Assembly (NCBI GenBank): GCA_036397555.1
Contig: DASWIS010000001.1
Coordinates: forward strand, 120,854-184,853
Length of the DNA stretch: 64,000 nt
Direction: 5' to 3'
DNA from: Candidatus Zixiibacteriota bacterium
GTDB lineage: Bacteria; Zixibacteria; MSB-5A5; WJJR01
The notes below the pieces were generated by a model that worked only from the letters and a program-made list of their open reading frames with translations, ran no database searches and was not told the origin of the DNA. The translations under genes and the position numbers were made by a program. The number at the start of each line of letters is the position of its first letter. The stretch's first letter is position 1. Below are positions 10,047 to 57,962 of this stretch, in pieces.

Positions 10047-10052
10047 TCGGAC

Positions 10053-11755: not shown

Positions 11756-11800
11756 CACAATATCACGTGTTCTTAAGAGTTTGATGCACAATATATTGTG
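11756..11800 (+). promoter_or_regulatory. tandem NrdR boxes (NrdR operator) upstream of nrdJ
   Basis: cacaatatcacgtgt (11756-11770) and the perfect palindrome cacaatatattgtg (11787-11800). Centres are ~31 bp apart, the characteristic NrdR box spacing. Confidence 0.55.
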
Positions 11801-11997
11801 ATTTTTTTGTGCTTAACGCGAAATTGTGGTTGACTCGTATGTTGCCGCGGGTCTAACGTCAATCCGGGAAATTGGTGGACCGGTTGAAGCTCTCTGTCCC
11901 TGAGCTTCACCGGGGGGGCACACGACGAAACAATTCAATACGTGATATAAGGTTTTGGTGCGTAATCTCTTAGGAGATCCCGCATCGGGGAGGATAC

Positions 11998-18962: not shown

Positions 18963-19036
<74 letters not shown>

Positions 19037-19362
19037 CTTTAGGTGGAGCGGTTACCATATAGCAGTTCTCACTTCACGCCACGCCCGCTATCTGTGCCAC
19101 AGAAGGGATTCACGATGCTGCTAGGTACGCTCCGGGTTTTGCGGTGCGGTTCCCAATGATGTAGAGTTTCAGTAGTCTCCCACATCCCGCTCTCGTTCAA
19201 GCTGATAGAGCAATCTCCCGGGTTTTTCTTCCCAAAAAAGGGAACCCGCGCCGAATCCTGACCGGTATAAGCGCTCAAGACGCTGCACCGCGCACGTACG
19301 CACGCACAGCATTGCAGTTGGGCAGTCCCGAAAGGGGACTATGGGTTGGAAGGAGGAGCACC

Positions 19363-37078: not shown

Positions 37079-39754
37079 ATGGCGAAACTGGAATTGCGGC
37101 CGTTGCTGGGCAAGCTCAATGCGTACGCAAGCGGGGCGGTCGAGGCGGCGGCGGGGCTGTGCGTGGCGCGGGCCCACTACGAGGTGACCGTCGATCACAT
37201 CATGCTGAAGCTGCTGGACAATCCGCAGGCCGATGTCCAGCAGATACTCCGGCACTTCGAGATCGATCCCTCGCGCGTGATCGGCGCGTTTCAACACAAT
37301 GTCGAAGGGCTGCGCGCGGGCAACACCGGCAAGCCGGTCTTTTCGCCGTTGTTGTCCGGCTGGCTGCAGCAGGCATGGCTGGCCGGATCGGTCAACCTCG
37401 GTCACGGTGTGCTGCGCTCCGGTACGCTGCTCTTGGCGCTCATGGACAATCGCGCGCAATACCTCGTCGGCGGCGAAGTGCTCGAATTGGATGCCGTCGA
37501 CTCCGAAGTTCTGCTCAAGCAGTTCGACGACATCACGGCCGTATCGATGGAGACGCAGCAGGTCCGCGCAGCGGCCGCATCCGGCGTAGCGGAGGCGGGC
37601 AAGGGGACGCCCGGCGGCGACACGGCACTGGGACGATTCTGCATCGACTTTACCGCGCGCGCCAGACAGGGTGGGATCGATCCGGTCTTTGGACGTGACA
37701 CTGAGATTCGTCAGATGGTCGATATCCTCGCCCGGCGTCGGAAGAACAATCCGATCGTTGTCGGCGAGCCCGGTGTCGGCAAAACCGCGGTTGTCGAGGG
37801 GTTGGCGCTGCGCATCGCCGAAGACGATGTGCCCGATCTGCTCAAAGGCGTGTCGCTGTTGGGGCTCGACCTCGGGCTCTTGCAGGCGGGAGCCGGTGTC
37901 AAAGGCGAGTTCGAAAACCGTCTCAAGCAGGTCATTCACGAAGTCAAGTCATCGGGCGTCCCGATCATTCTGTTCATCGACGAGGCACACACAATGATCG
38001 GCGCCGGCGGTGCGGCCGGTGGATCGGACGCCGCCAATCTGCTCAAACCGGCTCTGGCACGCGGCGAGTTGCGCACGATCGCGGCCACCACGTGGTCGGA
38101 ATACAAGAAGTACTTCGAGAAAGACCCGGCGCTGGCACGGCGTTTCCAACTGGTCAAGCTCGATGAACCGTCGGTTTCCGATACCGTTGTCATGCTGCGC
38201 GGACTGCGCGAGCGTTATGAGAAGGCGCACAACGTGCACATCCCCGATGACGCGCTGGTCTCGGCGGCCGAGCTGTCGGGACGGTACATTTCCGGACGGC
38301 TGCTCCCCGACAAGGCGGTCGATCTGATCGACACGGCCGCGGCGCGCGTGAAGATCGGCATCTCCTCGCGTCCGAATGCGCTGGAGGACTTGACCAGGCA
38401 GATTCAAATGCTCACGCGGGAACTCAACGCACACCGACGCGATCTGATCGGGCGCGGCGACGATGACGATGTGCGCATCAAAGACCTGAACGCCGCGATC
38501 GCGGACAAACAGTCGGCATCGGTGTCACTGGAGAAACAGTGGCAGACCGAAAAGGAAGCCGTCGACCAGTATCTCGCGATACGTCAGCGGCTGATGGGGG
38601 GCAATGGCGACGGCCAGGAGACCAATCCTGTCAAAGACCCGGCGGTTTCCATACCGGGCGATCCCAAACAACTCAAGGCGGCGAAGGCCAAGCTCGAATC
38701 GACACAAGGTTCCTCGCCGCTCATACCATTGGAAGTCACGCCCGAGGTGATCGGCAAGGTCGTGGCTGACTGGACCGGCATTCCGGTCGGCAAGATGGTC
38801 AAAGATCAAGCCGAGGCGATCCTGACATTCGAGGAGCGACTCAAGGAACGCATCAAGGGACAGGACTTCGCGGTCTCCGCGGTCGCGCATGGTATCCGCG
38901 CATCGAAAGCCGGTGTGCAGGATCCCGGCAAACCGATCGGCGTGTTCTTGTTTGTCGGTCCCTCCGGAGTCGGCAAGACTGAGACCGCGCTCGGCGTCGC
39001 CGATCTGCTCTTCGGCGGCGAGCGCTTCATGGCGACGATCAACATGTCGGAGTTTCAGGAAAAGCACACCGTGTCACGCTTGATCGGATCACCGCCGGGG
39101 TATGTCGGCTACGGCGAGGGCGGCGTACTGACCGAGGCGGTGCGACAGCGGCCGTACTCCGTCGTTCTGCTGGACGAAGTGGAGAAGGCCGACCCGGAGG
39201 TCATGAATCTCTTCTACCAGGTGTTTGACAAGGGAATGCTCTCCGACGGTGAGGGGCGCGAGATCGACTTCAAGAATACGGTCATGTTCATGACCTCCAA
39301 TCTGGCGACCGATGAAATCATGGCCTTGGGCATGGCCGACCAACCGCCGACGCATGAAGCCGTTGTGTCGGCGATCCGGCCCATTCTCAATCGCCATTTC
39401 AAGCCGGCGCTCGTCGGGCGGATGACCATCGTTCCGTTTTTCCCGCTGAAATCCGACGCGATCGGACGGATCGTCCGTCTCAAGCTCGAACGCGTGGCCA
39501 AACGTCTGAACGAGAGCCACAAGATGGCGCTGTCCTACGACGATGCCGTTGTCGATCAAATCACCGCGCGCTGCACCGAGGTGGAGACCGGCGCGCGCAA
39601 TATCGACAACATCCTGTCCGGCTCGCTGTTGCCGCGCATCTCGACGGAAATCCTGCAGCGCATGACCGCAGGGCCGTTGCCGGAACGGCTGACGTTGGGC
39701 ATCGACGCTGTGTCGGAGTTTACTTTGGTGTTTGGTGACGGCAACGCAGCATAA
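37079..39754 (+). CDS. clpV: type VI secretion AAA+ ATPase ClpV (TssH)
   Basis: Clp N-domain, two AAA+ modules ([18 protein letters not shown]). 891 aa. Confidence 0.9.
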
Positions 39755-39782
39755 CTGCGGCGTGGCGCGTTGATATACCTGT

Positions 39783-40355
39783 ATGGCACGCATGACCTAC
39801 GATATCTTCAGCGGCACTCTCGAAGCGCATTCGTCGTCGGGGGGACCGTCGGTCATCACCGAAGCGCGATCCGGCGCATCACGCTGGTGGTTTGACTCGG
39901 AGATCAAGCAGCACGGCTCTCATGGATCGCTGCGGCACGTCCATGGCGGGCCAATCCCGCCGGGACGCTGGGAGATTCTCGCGCCGGGGACACCGCATCC
40001 CGACGGCGGGACACTGCGCCCCCACTGGATCCCGTTGCGCCCGTTGTTTCAAACCGCTCGAACACACCTGTACATCCATCCGTCCGGCGCGCAGGACAAC
40101 CTGAACACCGAAGGGTGCATCGTTGTCCGGGGCTCGATCATCTCCGGCAACATCAGTGGTACATATCGGCTCATCTATGACATGGTCGTCGCCGACCGTG
40201 GCGGCGAACTCACGGTGGAGCGCGGCGACACATGCCGTTACCAACTCGCGCGCGGCGACGATGTCATTGTCCGCGCGAGCGCTCCGACCATTGCCGCCTC
40301 CGAAGCGCATGCCGGCGCCGTGGCGCCGCGGACGGCACGCACGATGATTGTCTGA
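39783..40355 (+). CDS. DUF2778-family protein (Tlde1-like L,D-transpeptidase-fold putative T6SS effector)
   Basis: GGPIPPGRWEIL and YIHPSGAQDNLNTEGCIVV resemble the DUF2778/Tlde1 motifs (GPIPxGxY; H-x(n)-GC). Confidence 0.5.
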   Translation: MARMTYDIFSGTLEAHSSSGGPSVITEARSGASRWWFDSEIKQHGSHGSLRHVHGGPIPPGRWEILAPGTPHPDGGTLRPHWIPLRPLFQTARTHLYIHPSGAQDNLNTEGCIVVRGSIISGNISGTYRLIYDMVVADRGGELTVERGDTCRYQLARGDDVIVRASAPTIAASEAHAGAVAPRTARTMIV

Positions 40356-40373
40356 GTCGGGTGTTGATGGGAT

Positions 40374-42536
40374 TTGATGATGGTACTTGATGTCGCCTCC
40401 GAATCGATCCTGACGTTCACAGTCGACGGGTTCGACGGCGAACTGCGGGTCCTGCAGTTGTCCGGACGCGAGGCGATGTCGGAATTGTTCCACTTCGGCG
40501 TCGATCTGGCCTGCCAGGATTCCGAGATCGATTTGGACGGCATCGTCGGTCAGGCCGCCCAGCTCCAAATCCATTACCTCGACGGTGCGCGGGAACTCAA
40601 CGGCATCATCAGCCGATTCGAGCAGGGGCATGTCGGCGAGACCTTCACCGCCTACTACGCCGAATTGGTGCCGAGCGTCTGGCTGCTGACCCAGCGATAC
40701 GACAGCCGCATTTTTCAGGAACAATCCGTCCCCGACATCATTCAAGCGGTGCTCAAAAACTCCGGGGCAACTTCGCGGTTCGCGTTGAAGGGCAGCCATG
40801 CGCCGCGCGAGTATTGCGTGCAGTACCGCGAGACCGATTGGAACTTCATCATGCGGCTGATGGAAGAAGTCGGCATCTTCTGTCAGTGGGAGCATCGGGA
40901 CGGCAAGGACATCCTGGTGATCGCCGACGCGCCCGGTGTGCACGTACCGATTGACGGTACGCCCGACGTTCTCTTCCGTGAGCCGACCGGTTTGGTCGAG
41001 GCCGAGGAGTTTATCTACCAGTTTCGCTCCGCGCAACAGATTCGGCCCGGGAAGATTACGCACACCGATTACAATTTCAAAACGCCGGCGCTCGACATGT
41101 TCAAAGATCAATCGGCCCGCCGAAATCCCGAGCTGGAAGTCTACGACTACCCGGGATTGTATCCCGATCAGGGGACCGGCGGGACACTGGCGCGCGCGCG
41201 ATTGGAGGCATTGCAATCGCCGCGGTTGAGCGCTGTCGGCGAGAGCACCTGCCGACGAATGATCCCCGGATTTAAGTTCACGATGCAGGAGCACCGGCGC
41301 GAATCATTCAACCAGGAGTATCTCCTCACGTCCGTACGGCACACCGCCAGCCAGCCGTTGGGTCAGGACGAGACCGGCGGGCGTTTTCATTATAGCAATT
41401 CGTTTGTCGCGATTCCGGCGTCGGTGCCGTATCGCCCGCCCCGCGTGACACCCAAGCCGGTGGTCGAGGGAACGCAGACCGCCGTTGTCACCGGCCCGGC
41501 GGGCGAGGAGATTTACACCGACGAGTACGGACGAATCAAAGTCCAATTCCACTGGGACCGCGAAGGAAAGAAGGACGACAAGTCATCTTGCTGGATCCGC
41601 GTTGCGCATCCGTGGGCGGGCCCCTCATGGGGCTCAATGTTTATCCCGCGCGTCGGATTCGAGGTCGCCGTGCAGTTTCTCGAAGGCGACCCCGACCGGC
41701 CGCTCGTCATCGGCTCGGTCTACAATGCGCAAAACATGCCGCCCTATCCGCTTGATGCGCAGAAAAACAAAAGCACGATCAAATCCAACAGCACCAAGGG
41801 CGGCGGCGGATCAAATGAACTCCGATTTGACGACACCAAGGGTTCTGAGGAAGTCTATCAACACGCGCAAAAAGACCTCACCATCCGTACCGAAAACGAC
41901 AAGAATCAGAGCACCGGCCACGACGAGACGCTGAAGATCGGCAACGACCGCAGCAAGGATGTCGGCAACAACGAGACGACGAAGATCGGCAAAGACCGCA
42001 CCGAAGAAGTCGGTGCCAACGAGACGATTAAGATCGGCACGGATCGCACCGAAGAGGTCGGCGCCAACGAAAAAATCAAGATCGGCGCCGACCGCACCGA
42101 AGAAGTGGCCGCCAACGAAACGATCAAGATCGGCGCCGACCGCACCGAGGACGTCGCTGGCAACGAGACGATCAAAATCGGGGGCAACGAGAGCATCACG
42201 GTCGGCGGATCGATGACGTTGAGTGTCGGCAGCGGCGGCACGATCAAGGTCGCCAAGGATGTGTCGACCTCGGTTGGCGCCGACTCCAGCACGTCGGTGG
42301 GCAAGGCGATGTCGACCGACGTCGGCAAGACCTACGACCTTTCCGCAGGCGATTCGATGACCATCAGCTCCAACAAGGACATCACGCTCAGTTGCGGCAA
42401 GGCGACCATCAATATGAAAAAAGACGGCACCATCACCATCAACGGCAAGGACGTCACCATGCAGGGGTCCGGGAAAATCACGGTGAAGGCGTCGAAGGAT
42501 GTCATCGTCAAAGGCAAAAAGATTTTGGAGAATTAG
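40374..42536 (+). CDS. vgrG: VgrG (TssI) spike protein
   Basis: gp27/gp5-like N-terminal regions. C-terminal tandem DRTEEVGANETIKIG beta-helix repeats. Confidence 0.9.
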   Translation: MMMVLDVASESILTFTVDGFDGELRVLQLSGREAMSELFHFGVDLACQDSEIDLDGIVGQAAQLQIHYLDGARELNGIISRFEQGHVGETFTAYYAELVPSVWLLTQRYDSRIFQEQSVPDIIQAVLKNSGATSRFALKGSHAPREYCVQYRETDWNFIMRLMEEVGIFCQWEHRDGKDILVIADAPGVHVPIDGTPDVLFREPTGLVEAEEFIYQFRSAQQIRPGKITHTDYNFKTPALDMFKDQSARRNPELEVYDYPGLYPDQGTGGTLARARLEALQSPRLSAVGESTCRRMIPGFKFTMQEHRRESFNQEYLLTSVRHTASQPLGQDETGGRFHYSNSFVAIPASVPYRPPRVTPKPVVEGTQTAVVTGPAGEEIYTDEYGRIKVQFHWDREGKKDDKSSCWIRVAHPWAGPSWGSMFIPRVGFEVAVQFLEGDPDRPLVIGSVYNAQNMPPYPLDAQKNKSTIKSNSTKGGGGSNELRFDDTKGSEEVYQHAQKDLTIRTENDKNQSTGHDETLKIGNDRSKDVGNNETTKIGKDRTEEVGANETIKIGTDRTEEVGANEKIKIGADRTEEVAANETIKIGADRTEDVAGNETIKIGGNESITVGGSMTLSVGSGGTIKVAKDVSTSVGADSSTSVGKAMSTDVGKTYDLSAGDSMTISSNKDITLSCGKATINMKKDGTITINGKDVTMQGSGKITVKASKDVIVKGKKILEN
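41946..42185 (+). repeat. ~42-bp tandem repeats (x5-6) inside vgrG encoding DRTEEVGANETIKIG units
   Basis: gaccgcaccgaagaagtcggtgccaacgagacgattaagatcggc and near-identical neighbours, read directly. Confidence 0.7.
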
Positions 42537-42547
42537 GAGCGACACAT

Positions 42548-42988
42548 ATGGAGACGCCAACCTGGGAACAACTGACAACGGCCGGAGCGGACGTGCGATT
42601 GGCGCGCATCGCCGCGATTACCGACGACGGCACCGTGCGGGTTGCCCTCTCCGATGATTGCATTGTGTCGGCGGATCGCCTGGAGAGCGTATCAATCGAA
42701 TCAGTCCGCCGGGCGCACGCCGACCAGCGCCGCGTCATGGTCTTTCTCGATCGACAGGACGAAACCCAGCCGGTCATCCTCGGAGTCGTCGCCGACCCGT
42801 TCTCAACGCAGGCGATTGTCGATGGCGAGAACTTCGAGATTCGCGGCGATCAACAGGTGACCCTGCGATGCGGCAAGGCGAGCATCACGCTGACGAGGGC
42901 CGGGAAGATCATGGTGCGCGGGACGTACCTCTCCTCGCGTTCGTCGGGCGTTAATCGCGTCAAGGGCGCGTCGGTCCAGATCAACTGA
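42548..42988 (+). CDS. small hypothetical protein with similarity to the extreme C-terminus of the adjacent VgrG
   Basis: Start METPTWEQ with aggag RBS. ...VTLRCGKASITLTRAGKIMVRGTY resembles the VgrG tail ...ITLSCGKATINMKKDGTITINGKDV. Confidence 0.45.
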   Translation: METPTWEQLTTAGADVRLARIAAITDDGTVRVALSDDCIVSADRLESVSIESVRRAHADQRRVMVFLDRQDETQPVILGVVADPFSTQAIVDGENFEIRGDQQVTLRCGKASITLTRAGKIMVRGTYLSSRSSGVNRVKGASVQIN

Positions 42989-43048
42989 CGACGCACCGAT
43001 TCCCACGATTGACGAGACACTGATGTCCCGTCGCGCTGCCATCCATCC

Positions 43049-44125
43049 ATGCAACTGATCAATGCCACGCGCATGGCCGCCGGGTTCACGCTCGGACGCG
43101 ACAGTTCCGGACGGGAGTCGGTCGTTGTCGTTGCCAAGGGGACATTCACGCTTCCATCCGACGGCGACAGGTCTCGTCTCCTCCCGATTCAGGAGCCGTT
43201 GGTCACGGCGGATGTCTTCTCCGGCGAGCCGGGGTTTTCCGCACCGATTTACGAGAGCGATTTTGCACCGCTCAAGTTGCGCTGCGATGTTCTGCTCAAC
43301 GGCAGCGCCCACGCGCCCGGCGGCAAGCCGGCCCAGCGTGTCGATGTCGCATTGCGTGTCGCCACGATCACCAAGTCGTTTGAAGTCGTCGGCCCGCGCA
43401 CCTGGCGGCAGGGGCTGGTGGGGTTTGCCGCATCGGAGGCGGAGTTTTTGACGGTCCTGCCGATTTCCTACGACAACGCGTTCGGCGGCGTCGACCAGAG
43501 CGATCCCGACAAGCCGCGATTTTATCCGTCCAATCACGCTGGCGTCGGTTACCACCACAATACATCGCTCGATTCTGTTGTCGGCCAGCCATTGCCGAAC
43601 ACCCAGGAGCCGGAGAACCCGGTCACCAATCCGCGCGGCGTCTATCGACCCATGGCATTCGGCGCGATCGGACGCAGTTGGGATCCGCGCCCGCAATATG
43701 CGGGGACCTACGATCAGCGCTGGATCGACGATGTATTCCCGTTTCTGCCGAAGGATTTCCGCAACGAGTACTTTCAGTGCGCCCCTCCCGATCAGCAATG
43801 CGACTACCTGCGCGGCGGTGAGGCGGTCGCGCTGGTCAATCTGACGCCGCTCGGCCGCTGTTCATTCCAGTTGCCGACTGTCGTTTTACCGGTCGAATTC
43901 ACCGATATCGACTCCAACCGCACGCGCGTCGATGCCGTCTGCGACACGCTGATCATCGAGCCCGATCAGTCCCGTTTCATGATGGTCTGGCGCGCGTCGC
44001 TGTCGCTGAAACGCGACATCATGGCCATGCGGCAGGCGATCGTCGGTACGCCGCCGCCCGGCTGGAAGCGGGCGCGCGATACCGGGAAAGTCTACTACCC
44101 CTCATTGGCGGCGCTCGGAGAGTAA
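43049..44125 (+). CDS. DUF2169-family T6SS adaptor protein
   Basis: MQLINATRMAAGFTLGRD...VVVVAKGTFTLP matches the DUF2169 N-terminus. Located between vgrG and the PAAR-like effector. Confidence 0.7.
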   Translation: MQLINATRMAAGFTLGRDSSGRESVVVVAKGTFTLPSDGDRSRLLPIQEPLVTADVFSGEPGFSAPIYESDFAPLKLRCDVLLNGSAHAPGGKPAQRVDVALRVATITKSFEVVGPRTWRQGLVGFAASEAEFLTVLPISYDNAFGGVDQSDPDKPRFYPSNHAGVGYHHNTSLDSVVGQPLPNTQEPENPVTNPRGVYRPMAFGAIGRSWDPRPQYAGTYDQRWIDDVFPFLPKDFRNEYFQCAPPDQQCDYLRGGEAVALVNLTPLGRCSFQLPTVVLPVEFTDIDSNRTRVDAVCDTLIIEPDQSRFMMVWRASLSLKRDIMAMRQAIVGTPPPGWKRARDTGKVYYPSLAALGE

Positions 44126-44129
44126 ATCG

Positions 44130-45155
44130 ATGAAACCGGCGGTGCTGGCGACGGGAATGGTGACGGCGATCGGGCTGGATGCACCGTCATCGTGCGCGGC
44201 GATCCGTAGCGGAATCACCGGCCACACCGAGACGCGGTTTCTGTATGACGGCGACTTCATCGTCGGCTGTCCCGTACCGTGGGCGGAGCCGGTGCGCGGT
44301 GTCGAACGGCTCCGCCAGATGACCGTCTCTTCGATCAGAGAATGTGCGGATGGTTTCGCCCGGTTGGATCCAAAGAAAACAGCTCTGTTGATCTGCCTTG
44401 CCGAAGCCGACCGTCCCGGACGATTCGACGGATTGGATGCGACTTTTGCAGACTCCGTTCACGCCGCACTGGGCTGGCCGCGCCATCCCGACTCCGCCGT
44501 GATCAACGACGGTCGTGTCGGGGGTGTGCGTGCTCTCGAACGCGCCCGCGCGCTGGTGGCGTCACGACGCGCCACGCATTGCATCGTCGCGGGCGCCGAC
44601 ACGATGCTGGCTGCCGACACACTGACAGCGGCCAGTGCGGCGCATCGATTGCAGACGGTGGAAAACTCCGATGGCTTCATACCCGGTGAAGCAGCGGCCG
44701 CGGTTCTGATCGGCATTCCCGCGGATAAGACCTGTCACCTCGAGTGCCGGGGCGTCGGCTACGGCGAGGAACGCGCCACCCGCGACTCGGGCGAACCGTT
44801 GCGTGGCGAAGGCATGGTCGCCGCCTTGCGGGCCGCCCTGGCCGATTCGTCGGTCGCATTGAATTCGCTCGACTACCGCATCACCGATTTGTCGGGTACG
44901 CAGTATGGGTTTAAGGAAGCGACCTTGGCATTGGACCGGCTGCTGCGTGATCGCAAAGAGGAATTCGACTTGTGGCATCCGGCCGAATGCATCGGGGAAG
45001 TCGGCGCGGCATTTATCCCGTGCGCGCTCGGAGTTGCGCTGACGGCCGCGCGTAAGGGGTACGCACCGGGACCGGGGCTGCTGTGCCACTGCGCCGCCGA
45101 TGGTCCGGGACGGGCCGCGGTTGTCCTGTACCGCACCGACAGGGAGCCGCGTTGA
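44130..45155 (+). CDS. thiolase-fold / 3-oxoacyl-ACP-synthase-like protein inside the vgrG effector operon
   Basis: 341 aa resembling KAS/thiolase fold. Its stop overlaps the next ATG (TGATG). The canonical KAS catalytic Cys motif is not obvious. Confidence 0.5.
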   Translation: MKPAVLATGMVTAIGLDAPSSCAAIRSGITGHTETRFLYDGDFIVGCPVPWAEPVRGVERLRQMTVSSIRECADGFARLDPKKTALLICLAEADRPGRFDGLDATFADSVHAALGWPRHPDSAVINDGRVGGVRALERARALVASRRATHCIVAGADTMLAADTLTAASAAHRLQTVENSDGFIPGEAAAAVLIGIPADKTCHLECRGVGYGEERATRDSGEPLRGEGMVAALRAALADSSVALNSLDYRITDLSGTQYGFKEATLALDRLLRDRKEEFDLWHPAECIGEVGAAFIPCALGVALTAARKGYAPGPGLLCHCAADGPGRAAVVLYRTDREPR

Positions 45156-46279
45156 TGTCGAACAAGGTATTCGCCAACACTCGCGAAATTTCCTGCAAAG
45201 CGGCGGCGGGCAAGTCGATCTGCAGCTTCCCCGATGTCTGCCTCAGCCCGCCCTCGCCCCCGGCGGGACCGGTTCCGATTCCGTATCCCAATACGGCATT
45301 CGCCAGTGATGCGACCAGCGGCTCCAAAAACGTGAAGATCTCCGGCAAGGAGATCATGCTCAAGAACAAGTCGTACTTCAAGAAAAGCACCGGCGATGAG
45401 GCGGCGACCAAGTCATTGGGTATGGGAGTGGTCACGCATCAGATTCAGGGCAAAGTCTACTTCGTCAGTTGGTCGATGGACGTCAAAGTCGAGGGACAGA
45501 ATGCCTGCCGCCACCTCGACATGACCACGCACAACCACATGTCGCCGACGCCGAACACCGGCCCGTGGCCGTACGCCGACACGCAGGCGATCGCCAACAT
45601 CAGCGAGTGCGATGGCGATGCCGGCGAAGCCAAGACAAAGTGCGCCGGTCAGAAGGGACCACCGAAGTGCACGGAGGCGTGTCGAAAGGCACAAAAATGT
45701 GTTCTCGTAAAGAAGTCGGACGATAAGAAGGCCTGTTGCGAGCATGAAACGACCGGACACCACTTGGTCGAGGTCCATTGCTTCTCGCCGACCGGCGAGC
45801 GCGGCGGTTCGCTCGAAGATTTGGAGTCATACAACCAGAACGCCGCGCCGTGTGTGTGTGCGTCACAGTCGCGTGCCGACGGATCGCATGGAGTCCTGCA
45901 CGCCGTGCAGGGTCAACTGGAAGGCGCGCACAACAGCAAACCGGGTGAGCCGAACTGCGAGTGGGAAGATGCCGGCGGAAAGATCAAAGGAAAGAAGAAG
46001 CGCGCCAACGCGGTCTCCAAGTGGACATACTCCGAGGCCCGTGACGCTGGCGCCAAGGCGCACAAAATCGCCTTTCCTCACTGCAACGAGGACTGCATCA
46101 AGAAGCAGTTGGATGCCTATCACAAAGACGAGTGCGGCCTCGACGATGACACGCCCTTGCGGAGCGATCCCGGCGCACCGAATCGTTCTGCCGGAACACT
46201 GAGCAAGAAACAGCAACAGCAGGTTGACGATGCGGTCGATGCCATCCGCGGCGTTGGAAACTCGTCCTCCAGCGTATGA
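45155..46279 (+). CDS. PAAR-like (DUF4150) T6SS effector with Cys-rich C-terminal GHH-motif (HNH/EndoVII-like) putative nuclease toxin domain
   Basis: N-terminus MSNKVFANTREI...FPDVCLSPP...PIPYPNTA...GSKNVKISGKEIMLKNKSYFKKSTGDEAAT matches DUF4150. C-terminus is Cys-rich and contains ETTGHHLVEVHC. Confidence 0.7.
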   Translation: MSNKVFANTREISCKAAAGKSICSFPDVCLSPPSPPAGPVPIPYPNTAFASDATSGSKNVKISGKEIMLKNKSYFKKSTGDEAATKSLGMGVVTHQIQGKVYFVSWSMDVKVEGQNACRHLDMTTHNHMSPTPNTGPWPYADTQAIANISECDGDAGEAKTKCAGQKGPPKCTEACRKAQKCVLVKKSDDKKACCEHETTGHHLVEVHCFSPTGERGGSLEDLESYNQNAAPCVCASQSRADGSHGVLHAVQGQLEGAHNSKPGEPNCEWEDAGGKIKGKKKRANAVSKWTYSEARDAGAKAHKIAFPHCNEDCIKKQLDAYHKDECGLDDDTPLRSDPGAPNRSAGTLSKKQQQQVDDAVDAIRGVGNSSSSV

Positions 46280-47241
46280 CCGATGCCGACACGTCCGTTG
46301 ACGATGGGGGTTCAGGACCAGTGAATCAGATCGGACCGACACCGTTCAGTTTTCTCTCCGGATTTGTACAGGACCGCAATACCGCCCGCGTCATTGCGCA
46401 AGTCGATCAATTGCGTGATCAGGGCTCCACTGCGTCACGACTGATGAAGTGGACGCGCGACGAGGGTCAGTGGATGTCCTTTCGTCTGGAGTGGACGGCG
46501 ACACGCATGTGGGTGCTTACGAAGCCGGAAATGCAGGTATTTGCAATCGGACCCGATGGCATCGTGAGTGTTGGTACCTCCAAGGGGATGAGTGAAGAGG
46601 AAGTCGATCCCGGCGACGATGGCCCGCGCCGTCGGGGACCGATCCGCGACTTGCAATTCATCGGATCGCACCTGTACGTCGCCGGGATGAGCCGTCAGGT
46701 ATACCGTCGTGAGGCACCGAATCGATGGATGCGACAAGATGACGGCGCCGTCCTGCCACGCGGAGATATGACAGTCGCGGGTTTCAATTCGATCGACGGT
46801 CTCGATGAGAATGACATATACGCGGTCGGATTCAATGGCGAAATCTGGCGACGGAGCGGCGAGAAGTGGCGTAAACTCGACAGCCCCACCAATCTCGTAC
46901 TGCACCGTGTGCGGGTGATTCGTCCCGACCTTGTCTTCATCTGTGGACAGGAGGGCGTGTTGATGCGCGGCAGCGGTGAGCGCTGGCGTATTATCGAACA
47001 CGATGCAACTGCGGAGGATTTCTGGGGGATGGAATGGTTCGGCGATAGACTCTATCTGGCCTGTGATGACGGTTTGTATGTGCTTGCCGCCGATGATTCG
47101 GTGAACGCGGTCGACACCGGCTTGGCAGCCGAATGGACCACACGTCATCTACACACTAACGATGGTGTTCTGTGGTCGTTTGGCCCCAAGAGCATTGCCT
47201 GGACTGAAGACGGCCGACTCTGGAACGATGTGACGCCATGA
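46276..47241 (+). CDS. hypothetical beta-propeller-like protein; candidate immunity protein for the upstream toxin
   Basis: ATG overlaps the toxin stop (ATGA). Repeated blade-like segments (YAVGFNGEIWRR, VFICGQEGVLMRG, LYLACDDGLYVL). No signal peptide. Confidence 0.45.
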   Translation: MTDADTSVDDGGSGPVNQIGPTPFSFLSGFVQDRNTARVIAQVDQLRDQGSTASRLMKWTRDEGQWMSFRLEWTATRMWVLTKPEMQVFAIGPDGIVSVGTSKGMSEEEVDPGDDGPRRRGPIRDLQFIGSHLYVAGMSRQVYRREAPNRWMRQDDGAVLPRGDMTVAGFNSIDGLDENDIYAVGFNGEIWRRSGEKWRKLDSPTNLVLHRVRVIRPDLVFICGQEGVLMRGSGERWRIIEHDATAEDFWGMEWFGDRLYLACDDGLYVLAADDSVNAVDTGLAAEWTTRHLHTNDGVLWSFGPKSIAWTEDGRLWNDVTP

Positions 47242-48485
47242 ACGCAGGTGTCGTCGCACCCGTCATCAGTCAGCACGCCGAGGAAGCGTCGTTCTTGTGG
47301 CTGCTGCGCAGCGCGGCCGTGAACGCCCCTCATTACACATTGCGCGATTTGGCGGAGCTGGATACTCGCGTCGAAGCGCATCTCGACGGCCTGCGCATCG
47401 CGGGCGCGGCCGGATGGGACATCTGTCGGAACGAGCTGGCCTGGGAGGAGCCGGGCGAAGTCTTCGTCGCCGGCTGCCTCGCATTCGCCAACGGCGACAT
47501 GACTCGCATGCGCGCAGTCCTCGATGTCGTTCAACAATCCGGACAGTGTATCCCAGGGGTGATCTCCGCGCTGGGATGGCTCGATTACGACGACGTGTCC
47601 GAGCGCGTCAAGCAACTCCTGTCGGCTCGCACGCCTGACCTTCGCCGCATCGGTATAGCGGCGATGGCGATCCATCGACGTGACGTCGGTGCCGATCTCG
47701 CATCGGCCATCGACGATGACGAGAGCTCACTTCGAGCGGCGGCACTTCGCGCCGCCGGTCAGTTGGGTCGGGCCGATTGCCTCTCTGCGCTGGTCTCACA
47801 TCTGGAAGATCCCGATGCCATGTGCCGCTTCTGGGCCGCCTGGTCGGCGGTACGCATGGGAGAACCCAATGGGTTGCATGTGCTGCGTGAACTGGCAGAG
47901 TCGGGTTTTGTGCGTCGTCAGCGAGCGCTCGACGTTGCCCTGCGCGCGATGCCTCTGCCCCAGGCGTTGCGATGGCAGAGTGCGCTTGCTTCAAATCCGG
48001 AGCTGGCACGACAAGCCGTCATCGCCGCCGGAGTGATCGGCGACCCATCGCTGGTTCCATGGCTGCTCGAGCGAATGGCGAGTCCCGAGCTGGCTCGCGT
48101 GGCGGGCGAGGCATTCACGCTCATTACCGGCGTCGATCTCGCGCTCGCCGACCTGGATGGTGACTCCCCGGATGGATTCGAACCTGCTCCGACCGATGAT
48201 ATTGCCGATGAATCGGTCGACATCGATCCGGACATTGACCTCCCTTGGCCTGACCCGGAAGCGCTGCGCGGCTGGTGGAATGAGCATCAGGGTGATTTTC
48301 GAAGCGGCGAGCGCTGCTTGCTGGGAAAACCGCCTGAGCCGGCCGCACTGAAAGAGATTCTGCGGCTGGGGTTTCAACGTCAGCGCGCCGCCGCCGCCAT
48401 GCAGCTTGCGTTGAGCGCTCCGAAGGCACTGCTGTACGAAATCCGGTCGCCCGGATTCCGGCAGCGCGCCGATTGGGGTGTCTAA
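47238..48485 (+). CDS. HEAT/PBS-lyase-repeat protein (possible second immunity/accessory protein)
   Basis: ATGA overlap with the previous gene. Alpha-helical repeats of ~30 aa (...LRAAALRAAGQLGRADCLSALVSHLEDPD...). Confidence 0.5.
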   Translation: MNAGVVAPVISQHAEEASFLWLLRSAAVNAPHYTLRDLAELDTRVEAHLDGLRIAGAAGWDICRNELAWEEPGEVFVAGCLAFANGDMTRMRAVLDVVQQSGQCIPGVISALGWLDYDDVSERVKQLLSARTPDLRRIGIAAMAIHRRDVGADLASAIDDDESSLRAAALRAAGQLGRADCLSALVSHLEDPDAMCRFWAAWSAVRMGEPNGLHVLRELAESGFVRRQRALDVALRAMPLPQALRWQSALASNPELARQAVIAAGVIGDPSLVPWLLERMASPELARVAGEAFTLITGVDLALADLDGDSPDGFEPAPTDDIADESVDIDPDIDLPWPDPEALRGWWNEHQGDFRSGERCLLGKPPEPAALKEILRLGFQRQRAAAAMQLALSAPKALLYEIRSPGFRQRADWGV

Positions 48486-48583
48486 GGGCCGTCTGCGGCG
48501 AATCTGCGGGGTGCATAGTAACCCCCTCACCCAACCGTCTTCGACATTGCCGTGGCAATACACAATGGAGTATCATCCAGCGC

Positions 48584-49363
48584 ATGACGCCAGATCAGAG
48601 GACTGTCCGCGACACGTCCGCCGACCGCTTTGACGACGATTCCGATGTCGCGATACTCGACGCCGAGCCGGAATCCCCATACCGCTACTACGTCGAAGAT
48701 GAAAAGCCGCGCGCCGATGCGGCATTCTTCGAATTGTTGTTGGCGCGAATCGTGCGCGGCGGCGGCGATGCCGATTCCGTGCGCGAGTACTGGCCACGCG
48801 TCGTCACCGCGCTGTCGGGCTTCAACGCGTTTCGCCTGGCCTACCTCAGCGAATCGGAAGTGGCATCGTCGATCCAATCGGTCGGTGGACGCTTCAGCGC
48901 GACACTGGGATCGCGTGCCCGGGACATAATCGCCTGGGCGGAGGCGTTCTGGCGCGTGCGTCAGATTTACGGATCGTTTCGCCAGTATATCCGATCATTC
49001 GATACCGATGGCATCGATGCCATGCTGGCCGATATGACGCAACGGCTGCCGGGACTGTCGCGCGAATTCCTGACCGAGTTCCTTCACGAAGCGGGAGAAC
49101 GGCTCCCGTCGACGGGAACCCAGCAGGGCGGACGGTCGCGCCGGCAGCGTCAGGGACGCGGTCGGCGGCAACAGCCCAAAAGGCAGCAGCCAGAGCCGCC
49201 GAAAGCAGAGTCGGCGCCGACCAGCAAAGCGCAGCCGACATCCGCCGCCGACGCAGACAAGTCGGGACCTAACCGCGGCAATAAGCGCGGCCGCCGACGC
49301 TTCTTTCGCCGACGCCGGGGTCGGCAACAGGGCGGCGATCAGGAAGCAAAGACCAAGCCATAG
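48584..49363 (+). CDS. hypothetical protein, weak Tag (3-methyladenine glycosylase I)-like core plus Arg-rich disordered C-terminal tail
   Basis: Start MTPDQRTV. YYVEDEKPRADAAFFELL...FNAFRLAYLSESEV loosely follows the Tag pattern. Tail RSRRQRQGRGRRQQPKRQQ...RGRRRFFRRRRGRQQ. Confidence 0.35.
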   Translation: MTPDQRTVRDTSADRFDDDSDVAILDAEPESPYRYYVEDEKPRADAAFFELLLARIVRGGGDADSVREYWPRVVTALSGFNAFRLAYLSESEVASSIQSVGGRFSATLGSRARDIIAWAEAFWRVRQIYGSFRQYIRSFDTDGIDAMLADMTQRLPGLSREFLTEFLHEAGERLPSTGTQQGGRSRRQRQGRGRRQQPKRQQPEPPKAESAPTSKAQPTSAADADKSGPNRGNKRGRRRFFRRRRGRQQGGDQEAKTKP

Positions 49364-49408
49364 AATGCCCCGCTCCGGCGGCGTCACTTACGGGGTCAAG
49401 CGCCCGCG

Positions 49409-50308
49409 ATGACCCACAGCAGAAGCATCAACAGCATCTGTGCGGTCGCCCTGCTGCTGACCGGCCCTGGCTGCACGCGCGGAGACACTCCCCAAATGGC
49501 TGAAACCAAGACTGCTTCGACATCGCGCCCAGTCGAATCAGGTCACGCTCCGGTCAACGGCATCCGCATGTATTATGAGGTACACGGCGGCGGAGATGAT
49601 GTCCCTCTCCTCCTGCTCCACGGGGGCGGGTCGACCATCGAAGTGACCTTTGGCCGGATCCTCCCTTTTTTCGCCTCACGCGGACGAGTCATCGCAGTCG
49701 AGGAGCAGGGGCATGGTCGCACCTCTGATCGCGTTGGACCGGTGAGCTTTGAGCGCACTGCGGACGATGTCGCGGCCCTGCTTCGCCACCTGGAGGTCGC
49801 ACGGGCCGATCTTCTGGGTTTCAGCAACGGTGCCAGTATTGCGCTCCAGGTTGCCATACGGCACGCGCCGGCCGTGCGAAAACTGATCTTTGCGTCGTCC
49901 ATCACGAAGCGGGATGGCGCAGATCCGCAGTTCTGGGAGTTCATCGCGCGGGCCGAGTTCTCTAATATGCCGCAGCCGCTTAAAGACTCATTTCTGCAGG
50001 TAAACCCGGACCCTGATCAGCTCAAAACCATGCATGAGAAGGATGCCGCGAGGATGCGCAGTTTTCAGGACGTGCCCGACAGTCTGGTGCGCTCCGTTCG
50101 GGCGCCGACGTTGATCCTCCTCGGCGATCAGGACATTGTGCGACTCGAGCATGCGGTTGACCTGACACGCATGATTCCGGGTGCACGGCTCATGGTTTTG
50201 CCGGGCGGACATGGAGATTATCTGGGAGAGTTATTGTCGATGTCCGGGGACGCATATTATCCCGCGTTGACGGCTGAGCTGATCAACGAGTTCCTCGATG
50301 CGCCGTGA
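49409..50308 (+). CDS. alpha/beta-hydrolase fold lipoprotein
   Basis: Lipobox LLLTGPGCT. HGGGS oxyanion region. GFSNGA nucleophile elbow. Confidence 0.7.
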   Translation: MTHSRSINSICAVALLLTGPGCTRGDTPQMAETKTASTSRPVESGHAPVNGIRMYYEVHGGGDDVPLLLLHGGGSTIEVTFGRILPFFASRGRVIAVEEQGHGRTSDRVGPVSFERTADDVAALLRHLEVARADLLGFSNGASIALQVAIRHAPAVRKLIFASSITKRDGADPQFWEFIARAEFSNMPQPLKDSFLQVNPDPDQLKTMHEKDAARMRSFQDVPDSLVRSVRAPTLILLGDQDIVRLEHAVDLTRMIPGARLMVLPGGHGDYLGELLSMSGDAYYPALTAELINEFLDAP

Positions 50309-50347: not shown

Positions 50348-50370
50348 TGATGGAGGCGGGGGGAATCGAA
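50348..50370 (+). repeat. 23-bp direct repeat copy 1 (duplicate of the tmRNA 3' end; attR-like)
   Basis: tgatggaggcggggggaatcgaa, identical to 50676-50698. Confidence 0.75.
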
Positions 50371-50405: not shown

Positions 50406-50666
50406 TTACCCGCCGCTGGCGGGCCGCGCCTGATTCTCCCATTCGTCCAGCCACTTACGGCCCTGACCGGACTTCAGGAATTTCTCACGAATCCGTGCCT
50501 GTGCGTGATCGGTGTACTCCTCTGTAAAGATCAGACGGAAATCTCCAAGCATTCGGCTCACCGACGTGCCGGCCGATCGATGCTCATTCAGACGCCGCGG
50601 CAGGTTGTTAGTGATGCCAACGTACCGGCGTCCGGAATCACCGCGCAGAACGTACACTGTAACCAC
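50406..50666 (-). CDS. small GIY-YIG (URI-domain) nuclease-family protein
   Basis: VYVLRGDSGRRYVGITNNLPRRLNEH GIY-YIG core. 86 aa. Lies entirely between the two 23-bp repeats. Confidence 0.7.
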   Translation of the reverse strand: MVTVYVLRGDSGRRYVGITNNLPRRLNEHRSAGTSVSRMLGDFRLIFTEEYTDHAQARIREKFLKSGQGRKWLDEWENQARPASGG

Positions 50667-50675: not shown

Positions 50676-51037
<362 letters not shown>

Positions 51038-51824
51038 GAAGAGGACTTACTCTTCAGACATGAGCGTTACGCAAATCACGATTAACTGTTTGCGTGACAA
51101 ACAGATGTCCATACGGAGGCGCCGTTTGTATCTGACAACATGTTGACCATCAAGGGATTAGGCGATAATTGGGCTTCGGGCCCCGGTCTCTCTATGAGCT
51201 TTATGAGAGCACGGAGATCGCGGGAGGGCACGTTCACTCGCTCGCATCGTTTCCCGTCAATCGCGTCTGATCCGGGAGCCCTCCGCGGCGACTCGTGGAG
51301 CGCCTATCGGCCGATCAGCCGGCCAACTGCCACCTCAAAGGCAAAATGCGCTTGACAACCCCTGTTTGAAGCTTAATCTAATGACTGGGTTGGCCGAGTT
51401 TCGAGGCAATTGAGCACGCAGGAAATTGGGAAAAAGACCGATTGCGTCGTGGCCGGCTTCAGTTACCTCACTTACTAAAGAGTCTTTGCCCCTGGCCGGG
51501 TCCCACCCCGGCACCGCAAGACGGCAGGCGTTGGAGTCTAACGATCAGGTACTGCGCGAACGCGACAGATTCGCTTCGAGGTGGCGTACACGCAGATTCA
51601 GACGTGAATTCAACTAACGATCTCACAGGCGAACAATCGGCATTCTTGGCCTACTGTAAGGAGGTGGTAGCTGCCTAATCAGGTTGAATGAAACCTCAAC
51701 AGCAGGACCCGGCACTCTCCGCACTGCGGTTGCGAGGCGCCGGTGTCGCAGTGGCTCGAACGTCGTCGCATCGACGGCGAATCAGGAAACGAAGGATTCA
51801 GCACCTCTCTGCAAGGAGACACGA

Positions 51825-54800
51825 ATGACGGGGAAGATTCTCAAAGTTGGCGCTGCAATCTGCCTGGCGGTTCTCGTCTTGGCCGGTACCGCGAATGCTT
51901 TTGAGTCGCGGGACAAGGCCGAGAAATCCGACCGGATGCAGATTCTGCGCCAGAACGGCGTTCTCGATCGCTGGGAACATTTTCGCCAGAATGGGCTCAA
52001 CGCCCAATACCGGATTATCAAGGACCTCGGTCCGGATCGCGGGTGGCGTCCGGACATGCTTCATCCCTCGGCGGTTGAGAATGCGTATTCAATCGTCAAC
52101 GACCGCCCGAGAATGGGCTCAGGCAACAGTCTTCTCGATTTGGACACCTTGGCCCCAGACCCGCTCCCGGCGCATATCGCCAACACGTCGTACGACAGTC
52201 AGGCGAATGACTCCCAGGGGCATCAGATTGCGCGCAATCCCGGAGCAGACTTTGTCCACATGGTGTGGATTCACTGGGATGAGATTCCCGAAGACATCGC
52301 GGACGCCGATCGTTTCGTGAACTACGCTGCGTGGGATGTCTTGGCTGCCCCCGGATTCGAATTACTCCCCGGATTCGACGGTGCGTCGATCGGGCTCGGC
52401 AACTTTGCGCGCGCGGGCTTTGCCCGCATGGACGTCGACAGCGATAGCAAGGCCCACGTTGTATTCCATCAGTATCCGGATGTGGGTGAGGATCAAAGCT
52501 ACTCGGCGTGGCACATTTTCGTTGTGGACGAAGCTGAGGTCATTACAAGCCCCGAGCAGTTGCCGTTGATTCCGGCCAATCCGGAAGTCACGGAAACACT
52601 CTGGCCCGATGTGGCCATTACGCAGAACAACGGCTTGGCCAAAGACAACACGACCGACCTCTTCCACGTGATCGGCATGGGCGCCATCCCGGCCGGCCCT
52701 GGTTTCGCTTCGCCGTCGGGCGATTTGGCCTATTGGCGCTGGGATCAGGAGAATCCCGGATGGAACGCTCCGGTGATCATCGACTCGACGAACGGCGCGC
52801 TGTCGTATGTCATCGACGCCTGCGACGGGACCGACAAGGTCGCCGCCGTCTTCACGCAAAACTACGAGTCGCAGTGGAACAACCTGTTTAATGTCGTTTA
52901 CCGCGAATCGGTGACAGGCGGTCTGGGCTGGGTCGACGGTGCGGAGTTGGGCGATATCAACCGCGAGTATGTCACCGACTACTCCGACAACATCACGCCG
53001 GGGCCGCAGACGTGGGGACACATCTCCGTCCTGTATGATCACGACAACGTGCTGCACGTCTTCTGGGATGAGCAGCGTCAGGCGAATCTTTCCGACGACA
53101 TCGCGATCCGCCACTGGGATGACAACACCCTGGCGATTCGTCCGGTTGCCCTGGGCTACTACACCAACGACGCGAACTACGCCGGCCACCTGAACTTGAA
53201 CAAGCTGACCGCGGGTGTCGGCGACGGATCGGCGACGTGCGACGGCGATCCCAACACCAACTATCTCTACGTCACCTACACCAAGAATTGCGGTGAGAGC
53301 GTTGCCGAAGCCGAGGACTTCTCGAAATTCGGCATTTGCAACGGCGAGATATACATCACCGGTTCACGCGACGACGGCAATAGCTGGTCGCCGGGCCTGA
53401 ACATCACCAACACGAAGACACCGCAGTGCACGTCGTCACATCCCGACTCGGTCTGCGCGTCGGAAGTGCAGGCGACGATCGCGCGGGACATCAGCGGCTC
53501 CGCGGGCATCGACATCATCTACCTGCAGGATCTGGAAGCGGCGACGTGGGCTGACGGCAGCGGCTGGACCATTAACCGGGTGATGTACCTCAATCTCCCC
53601 GGCGGCAACGACGCGGACTATGTCTGCCCGCTGAGCTCGCCGAACTTCGCCGCGTTCATCACATCCGACGACGACTGCGAATACCATGCCGCTCCGAACA
53701 CGCAGAATCATGAAGACCTGACGATCCTCAACATCGGCAATGCGACGATGAACGGGAACGTATCCGTCCAGAATGATCCGTCGGGATTCCTGTCGGTCGT
53801 GCCGTCGGGCGCCTACAGCATCGGCGTGGGCGCGCCGGATTTAGTGGCGGACGTGGAAATGGACGCCACCGGCCTGACGCCGGGCCTGTACAACGCTGAG
53901 GTCCGCGTGTCGCACAATGACGAGACCAAGCCCGACACCGTCCGCATCTTCGAGGTCGCGTTCTTCGTGGCGAACTCCTTCTTCTGTCCGGAAGAAGAGA
54001 TTCTGCGCACGAATGTGACCAGCCCCGGCGTTCTCTGGATGGAAGTCGAGTCCAGCGGACGTTATGCCGCGGCGGCGCAGGGCGGTCTCTTGCGCATCAA
54101 AGACTCTTCCTATGTATTTGAGGAAGGTTCATTGGTTGTCGCTCACGGCACTCAGAACCCCGATACGGTCGCGTTCCACCGTTTCTTCAACCGATTCCCC
54201 GAAGATCCGGGACAGCGCGGCTACCGTGCCCTGGCCGACCTGGCTTTTGACACGAACGCGTACGAGAGCGGTGCCGGCCAGGTGACCGCGACCGCGTTGA
54301 TGTGCACGAAGGATTCATTGGTCGGTGTCGACGCGAAGTGGTTCTTCCCGCAGCATGCTGATTCGGCGAACTTCGTCATCGTCCAGTACACGGTGCGCAA
54401 CCGCACCAATCAGTTGCCGGGCGGACACCCGAACTTCAACCAGACGCTCAACAACATTCTGGTCGGTCTGTGGAACGACATCGACGTGGTTGAAAGCAAC
54501 AAGCAGAACGTCCAGCAGGGTTCGGATAACACCGGCAGCGATGCATTGCTCGATTCGAATTTCGTGTATCAGTACGGATTCGATACGGTCGGGCATGCCG
54601 ACGTGGTCACGTCGAAGAAGTTCTCCGGCGGCATCTCGTACATGAAGGGACGCGACGCCACCGGTGCGAGCTTCAACTTCACCGCTCCGGTGCCGATTCG
54701 TGCCGGCGTCAAGTTTAACGTCATCAACCAGACGCAGGGCGGTCCGACGAGCGAAATCCTTTATGCCCAACTCGACGGCGGCGCGGGCGTCACGATCTCA

Positions 54801-57255: not shown

Positions 57256-57962
57256 ACGCGGTCGGCCCTGTTCAACTTCTGACCCGGTGCAGACGCACGG
57301 GCCGGCGCCGATGGCGCGATTGTGCAAAGCGCTGCACCTCTCCCGGCGCCCGGCCAATTTGCCCTGTGGGGACCTCAGATTTTGGCGGATTCTTAACTAA
57401 TTATCGGGCAATGCGTTTCGGGGACGATTATTCAGAGTCTTCCTTGCGGGTCGTTCCGAACGGGTCTGTCCGGAGATTGGCACTTCGGATGCGTCGAAGC
57501 ATTCGGACATCCCGGCCTGCCGGGACTCCTTAACACTATTCTATCGAGTGATACGTTGATGACTGTTGACAACCCGATGAAATGCAGTATCATAGTGACT
57601 GGCTATCCAGCCTTTTCCCTACAAGGGCGCCGTTCGGGATTTGCCACCCCGAAGACAACGAAAGGCCTGTGCTTATCAGCATCTGATGTGACCGAGTGGG
57701 TGAGTGACAGCGGAAGACAGTGCCGTTTCCGTCGAGACACACGCTCAAGCAAACAGGCGAGTTGGACAGTTCAGCTACCGCGTAGCAGCTACGTTTTCAG
57801 GCGCCCCTTGCTGACGAGACAAGATGTTGGACGAGTGGTCCCGAGCAACTCATGCCGCGCACAACTTGCGTCCGGTGCGTCATGTTCGGCGATCACGATC
57901 AACGACGGAATCAACGCGTGAAAATCCATATGCAAACTGACTCCCCAAGGAGGACTGAGGGT

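Follow-up and report, generated by a model that had tools for sequence, protein, structure and literature searches.

The 64,000-nucleotide stretch analysed here (the window) belongs to contig DASWIS010000001.1, which is labelled Candidatus Zixiibacteriota, and carries on its forward (+) strand, at 40374-48485, seven tightly packed open reading frames (ORFs). All lie at the coordinates given in an initial annotation, which had been made from the sequence alone and had described the region as a vgrG effector island. That island is real, with every ORF on the + strand and profile matches for most of the families:

40374..42536, + strand: vgrG, a VgrG1b-type spike with a long gp5-like beta-prism (720 aa)
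42548..42988, + strand: tvpC-like small gene, DUF6484-like (146 aa)
43049..44125, + strand: tvpA, single-domain DUF2169 (358 aa)
44130..45155, + strand: tvpD, a PRK06147 protein of the thiolase/beta-ketoacyl-ACP synthase (KAS) fold
45155..46279, + strand: Tse7-like effector, PIPY/DUF4150 plus Tox-GHH2 (374 aa)
46276..47241, + strand: Tsi7-like predicted immunity gene, beta-propeller (321 aa from the ATG in the ATGA overlap)
47238..48485, + strand: TIGR02270 HEAT/armadillo (ARM)-repeat gene, homologue of PA0101 (415 aa)

Read from the sequence, tvpD and the effector gene meet in TGATG with an overlap of one nucleotide (45153-45157), and the two genes downstream of the effector each begin in an ATGA overlap (46276-46279 and 47238-47241), as the annotation had said of their starts. 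The long minus-strand ORFs that cross the cassette (for example, 39879-41294 and 42803-43798) were set aside as probable artefacts of the high GC content, since the + strand genes all have strong homology. Upstream of the cassette lie genes for Fha, TssJ, TssK, TssL (DotU), TssM, TagF, TssA, TssB, TssC, Hcp, TssE, TssF, TssG, and ClpV, and the cassette is the terminal part of a complete TssJLM-type type VI secretion system (T6SS) cluster. We regard it as very probable that the seven genes are an ordinary T6SS spike-plus-toxin module that forms the effector-loading end of this cluster.

The most direct evidence comes from Pseudomonas aeruginosa. The region PA0090-PA0103 begins with clpV1 and the vgrG1a and tse6 island, followed by genes for a 741-aa VgrG, a 149-aa DUF6484 protein, and a DUF2169 protein; it continues with a 345-aa protein without a Pfam match, a 363-aa PAAR-like/GHH2 protein, a 306-aa protein, a 410-aa HEAT_2 protein, a carbonic anhydrase, and a sulfate transporter. 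The initial annotation had drawn an almost one-to-one parallel with the vgrG1b module, and pairwise BLASTP against PA0095-PA0101 bears this out, with the genes colinear at 41-48% identity. The window VgrG is 43% identical to PA0095 over 721 aa, the DUF2169 protein 46% to PA0097, the KAS-like protein 48% to PA0098, the effector 45% to PA0099/Tse7 over its full length, the 321-aa protein 42% to PA0100/Tsi7 over 300 aa (E 4e-82), and the 415-aa protein 41% to PA0101. The small ORF matches PA0096 in its C-terminal 77 aa only (56%, 5e-28).

The effector has two domains. Its N-terminus matches Pfam Tox-PAAR-like/DUF4150 (PF13665, 3.2e-35) over residues 21-131 (nucleotides 45215-45547), and the FPDVC, PIPYPNTA, and GSKNV strings from which the initial annotation had recognised DUF4150 are all present, as is the string PVPIPYPN. 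The C-terminus matches Tox-GHH2 (PF15635; 1.5e-14, 54.8 bits against a cut-off of 25) over residues 200-323 (nucleotides 45752-46123), with the GHH core H202-H203 at nucleotides 45758-45763 in the signature T-G-H202-H203. The annotation had read this Cys-rich end, with its ETTGHHLVEVHC, as a GHH nuclease and had allowed for a C-terminus without any HNH/GHH similarity; ETTGHHLVEVHC is present, the Tox-GHH2 match lies above the Pfam threshold, and the histidine residues are kept. When 17 sequences, P. aeruginosa Tse7 among them, were aligned, no substitution was seen at P41, P43, Y44, P45, and N46 of PIPY, at H202, H203, L204, E206, H208, H245, and H249 of the nuclease core, or at eight cysteines. 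As judged from the sequence, the toxin shows no sign of degeneration. A search for homologues returned 4290 proteins, among them the 363-aa P. aeruginosa protein, and the best 120 of the 4290 have almost all the same two-domain architecture. Against PDB sequences, the effector gave just a weak PAAR-like match to an Rhs protein. By analogy with PA0099 (45% identity) and the literature on it, we suggest that the effector is a DNase whose delivery would depend on VgrG and the T6SS.

The genes in front of the effector would supply the spike and its loading apparatus. VgrG matches Pfam Phage_GPD (4e-94), Gp5_trimer_C, Gp5_C repeats, and Phage_base_V (the OB domain), as well as TIGR03361 at 631 bits; an ATG at 40377 is a possible start instead of the TTG at 40374. 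The small ORF starts at an ATG (42548) that lies 11 nt past the vgrG stop and is preceded by AGGAG. Its residues 93-141 align with residues 659-707 of the window VgrG (33% identity, E 8e-7), and this resemblance between the C-terminus of TvpC and the VgrG tip is what the idea of a VgrG-tip mimic predicts. We therefore take the small ORF to be a putative OB-fold/short-prism mimic of the tip, a role assigned to its counterparts in PMC13373197. The product of 43049-44125 (TvpA) matches Pfam DUF2169 (2.6e-93) over residues 21-315, with neither a second domain nor a pentapeptide-repeat extension, and would act as the chaperone of the PIPY/PAAR-like domain, the function described in PMC11883445 and PMC13373197.

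The gene between those for DUF2169 and the effector had been called KAS-like, and its product indeed matches NCBIfam PRK06147 (NF004798, “3-oxoacyl-ACP synthase”) at 362 bits (cut-off 342). The refinement concerns the active site: profile alignment to KAS II structures shows that the Cys-His-His triad of beta-ketoacyl-ACP synthase is absent. When a 17-sequence profile was aligned to KAS II 9s5h_B (E 1.3e-7), the Cys, His, and His positions were occupied by R129, D253, and E290, and D253 also falls at a triad position in a single-sequence phmmer alignment to 5sxo. Substitution at all three positions fits a chaperone role and speaks against an enzyme; we suggest that TvpD is a thiolase-fold pseudoenzyme and predict that it serves as co-chaperone.

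For the two genes downstream of the effector, the initial annotation had offered “immunity or accessory”, with a beta-propeller-like fold for the first product and HEAT repeats for the second. Both fold assignments hold. The AlphaFold2 model of the 321-aa protein, built from a 51-sequence alignment, has a mean confidence (pLDDT) of 94.5 and is all-beta with about 30 strands, and among the Foldseek PDB matches listed almost all are WD40-type or other beta-propellers, at TM scores of up to 0.69. No Pfam or NCBIfam family matched this protein and a search against PDB sequences gave nothing useful. Its first 20 residues are acidic and modelled as disordered, and the N-terminus has no signal-peptide-like or hydrophobic stretch; the secretion signal that the annotation had thought would argue against immunity is thus not seen. 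The product of 47238-48485 matches TIGR02270 at 394 bits (cut-off 206.8) and Pfam HEAT_2 at 1.8e-16. The PADLOC models gave incidental HEAT-repeat matches only and no sign of an anti-phage system.

What separates the roles of these two genes is a comparison of 32 loci (L001-L030 plus L031-L032), searched by tblastn with the window proteins, the PIPY and GHH2 halves of the effector serving as separate queries. Among loci with a detected GHH2 half or full-length relative, nearly all have a homologue of the 321-aa protein behind the effector gene. Two loci, L024 (4323-5930) and L019 (10001-11551), have a PIPY domain 65% identical to that of the window with a different, shorter HNH-type C-terminus (DHIVP...CNSSK), and here the next gene is not the propeller; in its place stands an unrelated ORF of 218-219 aa that is homologous between the two loci. 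We read this as a probable exchange of toxin and immunity on one Tvp Class II chassis, with the 218-219-aa gene as candidate immunity gene. Despite the exchange, TIGR02270 is still present in L024, as a 421-aa gene (43% identity) that lies further downstream. In four loci from alphaproteobacterial metagenome-assembled genomes (MAGs) (L006, L018, L022, and L029), tvpA, tvpD, the effector gene, and the immunity gene occupy one strand, and vgrG, tvpC, and the TIGR02270 gene converge on them from the other, which places TIGR02270 with the spike genes. The closest relatives, L031/L032, have a toxin domain 68% and a propeller 60% identical to those of the window, with VgrG at 41% and TvpD at 40%. 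The propeller travels with the toxin domain and is thereby marked as immunity; we suggest that it is a Tsi7-like immunity protein and predict that it neutralises the toxin. TIGR02270 is kept by the delivery module even where the toxin has been exchanged, and is probably a dispensable accessory of that module and not an immunity gene. The either/or of the annotation can thus be refined by the locus comparison to one role for each gene.

The model that we propose takes as its base what could be read directly: the content and order of the genes, their families, the orthology with PA0095-PA0101, the conservation of catalytic and PIPY residues, the loss of the KAS triad, the propeller fold, and the co-variation among loci. 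For DNase activity, immunity, chaperoning, and a two-step pre-complex, it borrows from published work on homologues of the window proteins. The spike would be a trimer of VgrG chains, its tip capped by the cone of the N-terminal PIPY domain (DUF4150, PAAR-like) of the effector, and with this cone the Tox-GHH2 DNase domain (HNH/EndoVII-type) at the C-terminus would enter neighbouring bacteria. Until it is loaded, the hydrophobic cone would be held by two proteins, the chaperone TvpA (DUF2169) and the co-chaperone TvpD (KAS fold, catalytically dead), and seated on a trimer of TvpC, the small DUF6484 protein that mimics the VgrG tip; TvpC would afterwards be exchanged for VgrG. The producer would be protected by the cytoplasmic 321-aa, Tsi7-like beta-propeller, which is predicted to bind and neutralise the nuclease, and the 415-aa TIGR02270 HEAT-repeat protein would be an accessory of delivery with no part in immunity.

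The surroundings of the cluster bear on its host. The flanking housekeeping genes encode a class II ribonucleotide reductase, aminotransferases, and an AIR-synthase-related (AIRS-domain) protein, with a tmRNA gene among them, and the GC content is even across the 64-kb window. In NCBI, the proteins of the window are HEX9749796-HEX9749809, from a 185-kb contig in a “candidate division Zixibacteria bacterium” MAG. A scan of 185,579 species-representative genomes gave as best match a Myxococcota MAG at 48% identity. A literature search found no paper on T6SS in Zixibacteria, and the Tvp and DUF2169 surveys (PMC13373197, PMC11883445) do not report the phylum.

At 57852-63857 (+), the window encodes a 2001-aa protein with six HYR domains, FlgD_ig, and a C-terminal sorting domain of the type IX secretion system (T9SS) type at 24.6 bits (cut-off 27). 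Such sorting domains are typical of the FCB group. Its presence, as recognised from sequence, fits an FCB-group origin, and the contig would then hold T9SS cargo together with a TssJLM-type T6SS. If the taxonomic label holds, the module and the TssJLM-type T6SS are extended to Zixibacteria, suggesting contact-dependent antagonism in an uncultured sediment/soil lineage.

A tRNA-Arg(ACG) gene (18963-19037, +) on one side and the tmRNA gene (50679-51037, -) on the other enclose the entire T6SS cluster, and tRNA and tmRNA genes are classic sites of island integration. A repeat of the tRNA-Arg 3' end as attachment site was looked for and not found, and with this and the flat GC content the idea that the cluster is a genomic island is unsupported. 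The only repeat found is one of the 3' end of the tmRNA gene: 23 nt (TGATGGAGGCGGGGGGAATCGAA) recur in direct orientation at 50348-50370 and 50676-50698. Between the two copies lies a 330-bp insert with a gene for an 86-aa GIY-YIG nuclease (50406-50666, -), which resembles a very small mobile element inserted at the 3' end of ssrA. The gene that comes next after the cassette (48584-49363, +) encodes a protein of about 259 aa with a very weak methyladenine-glycosylase (Tag-like) match (E 0.14) and a long C-terminal tail rich in Arg, Gln, and Lys. A scan of 39500-49600 for promoters and terminators gave nothing above the shuffled expectation, with a promoter-like site at 48547-48576. Further on, a 1195-aa ORF (51684-55271, +) has no Pfam match at E <= 1e-4 and ends in two near-identical, dockerin-type-like repeats (VTNVFDVVKAVDVAFRNG / VTNVFDVVKFVDVAFRNG).

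One more gene stands between clpV and vgrG:

39783..40355, + strand: divergent YkuD/Tlde1-like gene (190 aa), outside the PA0095-PA0101 equivalence

It has no counterpart in the P. aeruginosa locus or in L031/L032, and its product found 11 relatives among 1.84 billion representative proteins. The motifs GGPIPPG and HLYIHPxG..TEGCI (His99, Gly111-Cys112) are conserved in this family. Against Pfam Tlde1_dom, the protein does not reach the threshold (E 0.042, 14.7 bits, threshold 30.1), and its relatives have sub-threshold Tlde1_dom/YkuD matches of 14-26 bits. The AlphaFold2 model has a pLDDT of 74, and its top 33 Foldseek matches are YkuD-fold L,D-transpeptidases or carboxypeptidases, all of them weak (E 3e-3 or worse, TM about 0.4); a search against PDB sequences gave nothing useful. 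The gene encodes no signal peptide and has no immunity candidate adjacent to it. One relative (P0273 contig) lies between tssG and a PAAR gene; another (L036) forms one domain within a 705-aa protein, whose gene converges on a PIPY/TvpD-like/TIGR02270-like module. Counting the window, the genomic context was informative three times, and each time it was a T6SS or PIPY module. In L036, the region 8570-13597 (-) holds a stand-alone PIPY gene followed by TvpD-like, CHAT-like 495-aa, 279-aa, and TIGR02270-like genes.

With the Tlde1 (DUF2778) L,D-transpeptidase-like T6SS effectors, the 190-aa protein shares a weakly predicted YkuD-like fold, the His...Gly-Cys motif, the lack of a signal peptide, and the location in a T6SS cluster; it differs in falling below the Tlde1_dom threshold, in having no adjacent immunity gene, and in the very small size of its family. 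The reading that we think most likely, though it is not established, is that the gene encodes a second effector aimed at the cell wall. Such a small YkuD/Tlde1-like family, recurring beside T6SS genes, is a candidate new effector family. A bolder, joint reading holds that a proteobacterial-type TssJ/L/M T6SS with a Tse7/Tvp Class II module sits in a Zixibacteria (FCB-group) chromosome and that, in addition, the 190-aa gene founds a rare, undescribed T6SS-associated YkuD/Tlde1-like branch, either an effector that targets peptidoglycan and has no immunity gene beside it or a factor for cell-wall remodelling encoded in the cluster. We put this forward tentatively, as a possibility that we would not yet bet on.

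Other explanations of the cassette were weighed against the one given above. Because HNH/EndoVII folds include RNases and the function of this effector is predicted from sequence, one could suppose that the Tox-GHH2 domain cuts a substrate other than DNA, such as RNA, or is aimed at eukaryotic cells. Tse7 is, however, listed as a Tox-GHH2 nuclease effector (PMC10281587), PA0099 is needed for the killing of Escherichia coli (PMC4067218), and a dedicated cytoplasmic immunity gene would imply intoxication of self or kin, and hence a bacterial target; we consider this alternative very improbable. Least probable of all is an enzymatic role for the KAS-like protein, with a condensing or acyl-transfer activity that would modify the effector or a lipid, a notion encouraged by the family name of PRK06147 and by profile matches to KAS II structures as good as E 1e-7. 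All its catalytic positions are replaced, its GRVG and ITD motifs are conserved in a four-sequence alignment, and a published structural model sets PA0098 against the PAAR-like domain (PMC13373197). The roles of the two downstream genes could also be reversed or shared, with the HEAT protein as the immunity protein (or a second one) and the propeller as an adaptor: ATGA overlaps couple the translation of both genes to that of the toxin gene, HEAT/ARM repeats can be protein inhibitors, and the role of PA0101 was not tested in PMC4067218 or PMC13373197. Set against this are the identity of the propeller to PA0100, which is named as the Tsi7 immunity protein (PMC10281587), the exchange in L024 that removes the propeller and leaves TIGR02270, the four alphaproteobacterial loci with TIGR02270 beside tvpC and vgrG on the strand opposite the toxin, the fusion of TIGR02270 to PRK06147 in some proteins (PMC7714669), and the lack of TIGR02270 beside the 68%-identical toxin of L031/L032. 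Reversal strikes us as quite unlikely, and we keep the propeller as the predicted immunity protein and the HEAT protein as the accessory.

The host is the more exposed part of the argument. The Zixibacteria label is the submitter's alone, most named relatives of the module come from Proteobacteria, the rest from Myxococcota, Planctomycetota, and other groups, and the TssJ/L/M membrane complex is of proteobacterial type, all of which would suit mis-binned proteobacterial DNA and make the unusual host an artefact. Yet the window carries housekeeping genes and the 2001-aa HYR protein with its near-threshold T9SS-type sorting domain, its GC content is even, and no genome among the species representatives comes closer than 48% identity; mis-binning is in our view unlikely, if less so than the alternatives above. 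Some points weigh against the spike-plus-toxin interpretation itself. The small ORF matches Pfam DUF6484 below threshold (16.1 bits, cut-off 27.6; model positions 2-61 of 61), and the toxin domain is 38% identical to that of characterised Tse7. The ATG in the ATGA overlap is a plausible but not a certain start for the 321-aa gene, which is 306 aa in the NCBI call and about 302-308 aa in its homologues; the true start may be a GTG 45 nt further on. No TIGR02270 gene was found within 8 kb downstream in L031/L032, and it is therefore not universally required. In PMC13373197, the Class II pre-complex was in turn predicted with AlphaFold, and complementation of a PA0097 mutant failed in P. aeruginosa.

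Tse7 is reportedly linked to DNA damage, to go by a title of Pissaridou and colleagues from 2018. In P. aeruginosa, PA0099 combines DUF4150 with a Tox-GHH2 domain of S(A/G/P)HH signature and is required for VgrG1b-dependent killing (PMC4067218), and PMC10281587 lists Tse7 as a Tox-GHH2 nuclease paired with Tsi7 as its immunity protein. DUF4150 owes its newer name, the “PIPY” domain, to Sachar et al. (2025, PMC11883445), who demonstrated that DUF2169 acts as its chaperone and defined synteny type A as VgrG, DUF6484, DUF2169, a thiolase-like protein, a DUF4150 effector, and an armadillo-like repeat gene. In the Class II Tvp scheme of Monlezun, Earl & Coulthurst (2026, PMC13373197), TvpC is the DUF6484 protein, a short mimic of the VgrG tip, TvpA is DUF2169, and TvpD is the PRK06147 co-chaperone; the proposed pre-complex is TvpC-TvpA-TvpD-PIPY, in which TvpC is later replaced by VgrG. 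Liu et al. (2020, PMC7714669) found that no toxin occurs more often than Tox-GHH2 downstream of either PRK06147 (54.5%) or DUF2169 (38.1%), and that 3.8% of cases show a fusion of TIGR02270 with PRK06147.

On its gene set, the window cassette is assigned to this published architecture, Class II Tvp/DUF2169 synteny type A: it has VgrG, a TvpC-like protein, a single-domain TvpA, TvpD, a DUF4150/PIPY effector, and an ARM/HEAT gene, and no structural difference was detected. Synteny type A includes the TIGR02270/ARM gene, for which the Tvp scheme has no name, and PA0101 goes unmentioned in PMC13373197. By the description in PMC11883445, the pef operon of Proteus mirabilis, with its DUF4150 effector PefE, has the same synteny type A gene set as the window and a different toxin domain; transposon insertions in each gene are described there as abolishing killing, and it is chiefly on this ground that we credit the TIGR02270/ARM gene with a function in delivery. 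The comparative loci supply an independent argument that the TIGR02270/PA0101 gene is an accessory of delivery and not of immunity. Together with a PRK06147 “synthase” that lacks all three catalytic residues, this accessory role fits and sharpens the chaperone models. For T6SS biology at large, the gain is small: another Tox-GHH2 payload on a published delivery module.

The H1-T6SS vgrG1b cluster of P. aeruginosa has its seven genes in the same order and orientation as the window, the same overlap of one nucleotide between stop and start of the PRK06147 and effector genes, and the same effector domain architecture, and it too lies downstream of clpV in an H1-like core cluster. The differences are of detail. 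In the window, the cassette follows clpV directly, with the 190-aa gene in between, whereas P. aeruginosa has the vgrG1a-tse6 island there; the window effector has TGHH where P. aeruginosa Tse7 has QPHH; an insertion of about 25 aa in the toxin domain, found in the window and in most family members, is absent from P. aeruginosa Tse7; the N-terminal half of the DUF6484 protein has diverged; and the host of the window is labelled Zixibacteria. Since Tox-GHH2 is the commonest payload of Class II Tvp/synteny type A, the cassette is the most typical form of an architecture already described, and what is unusual about it is its Zixibacteria host and one extra small gene.

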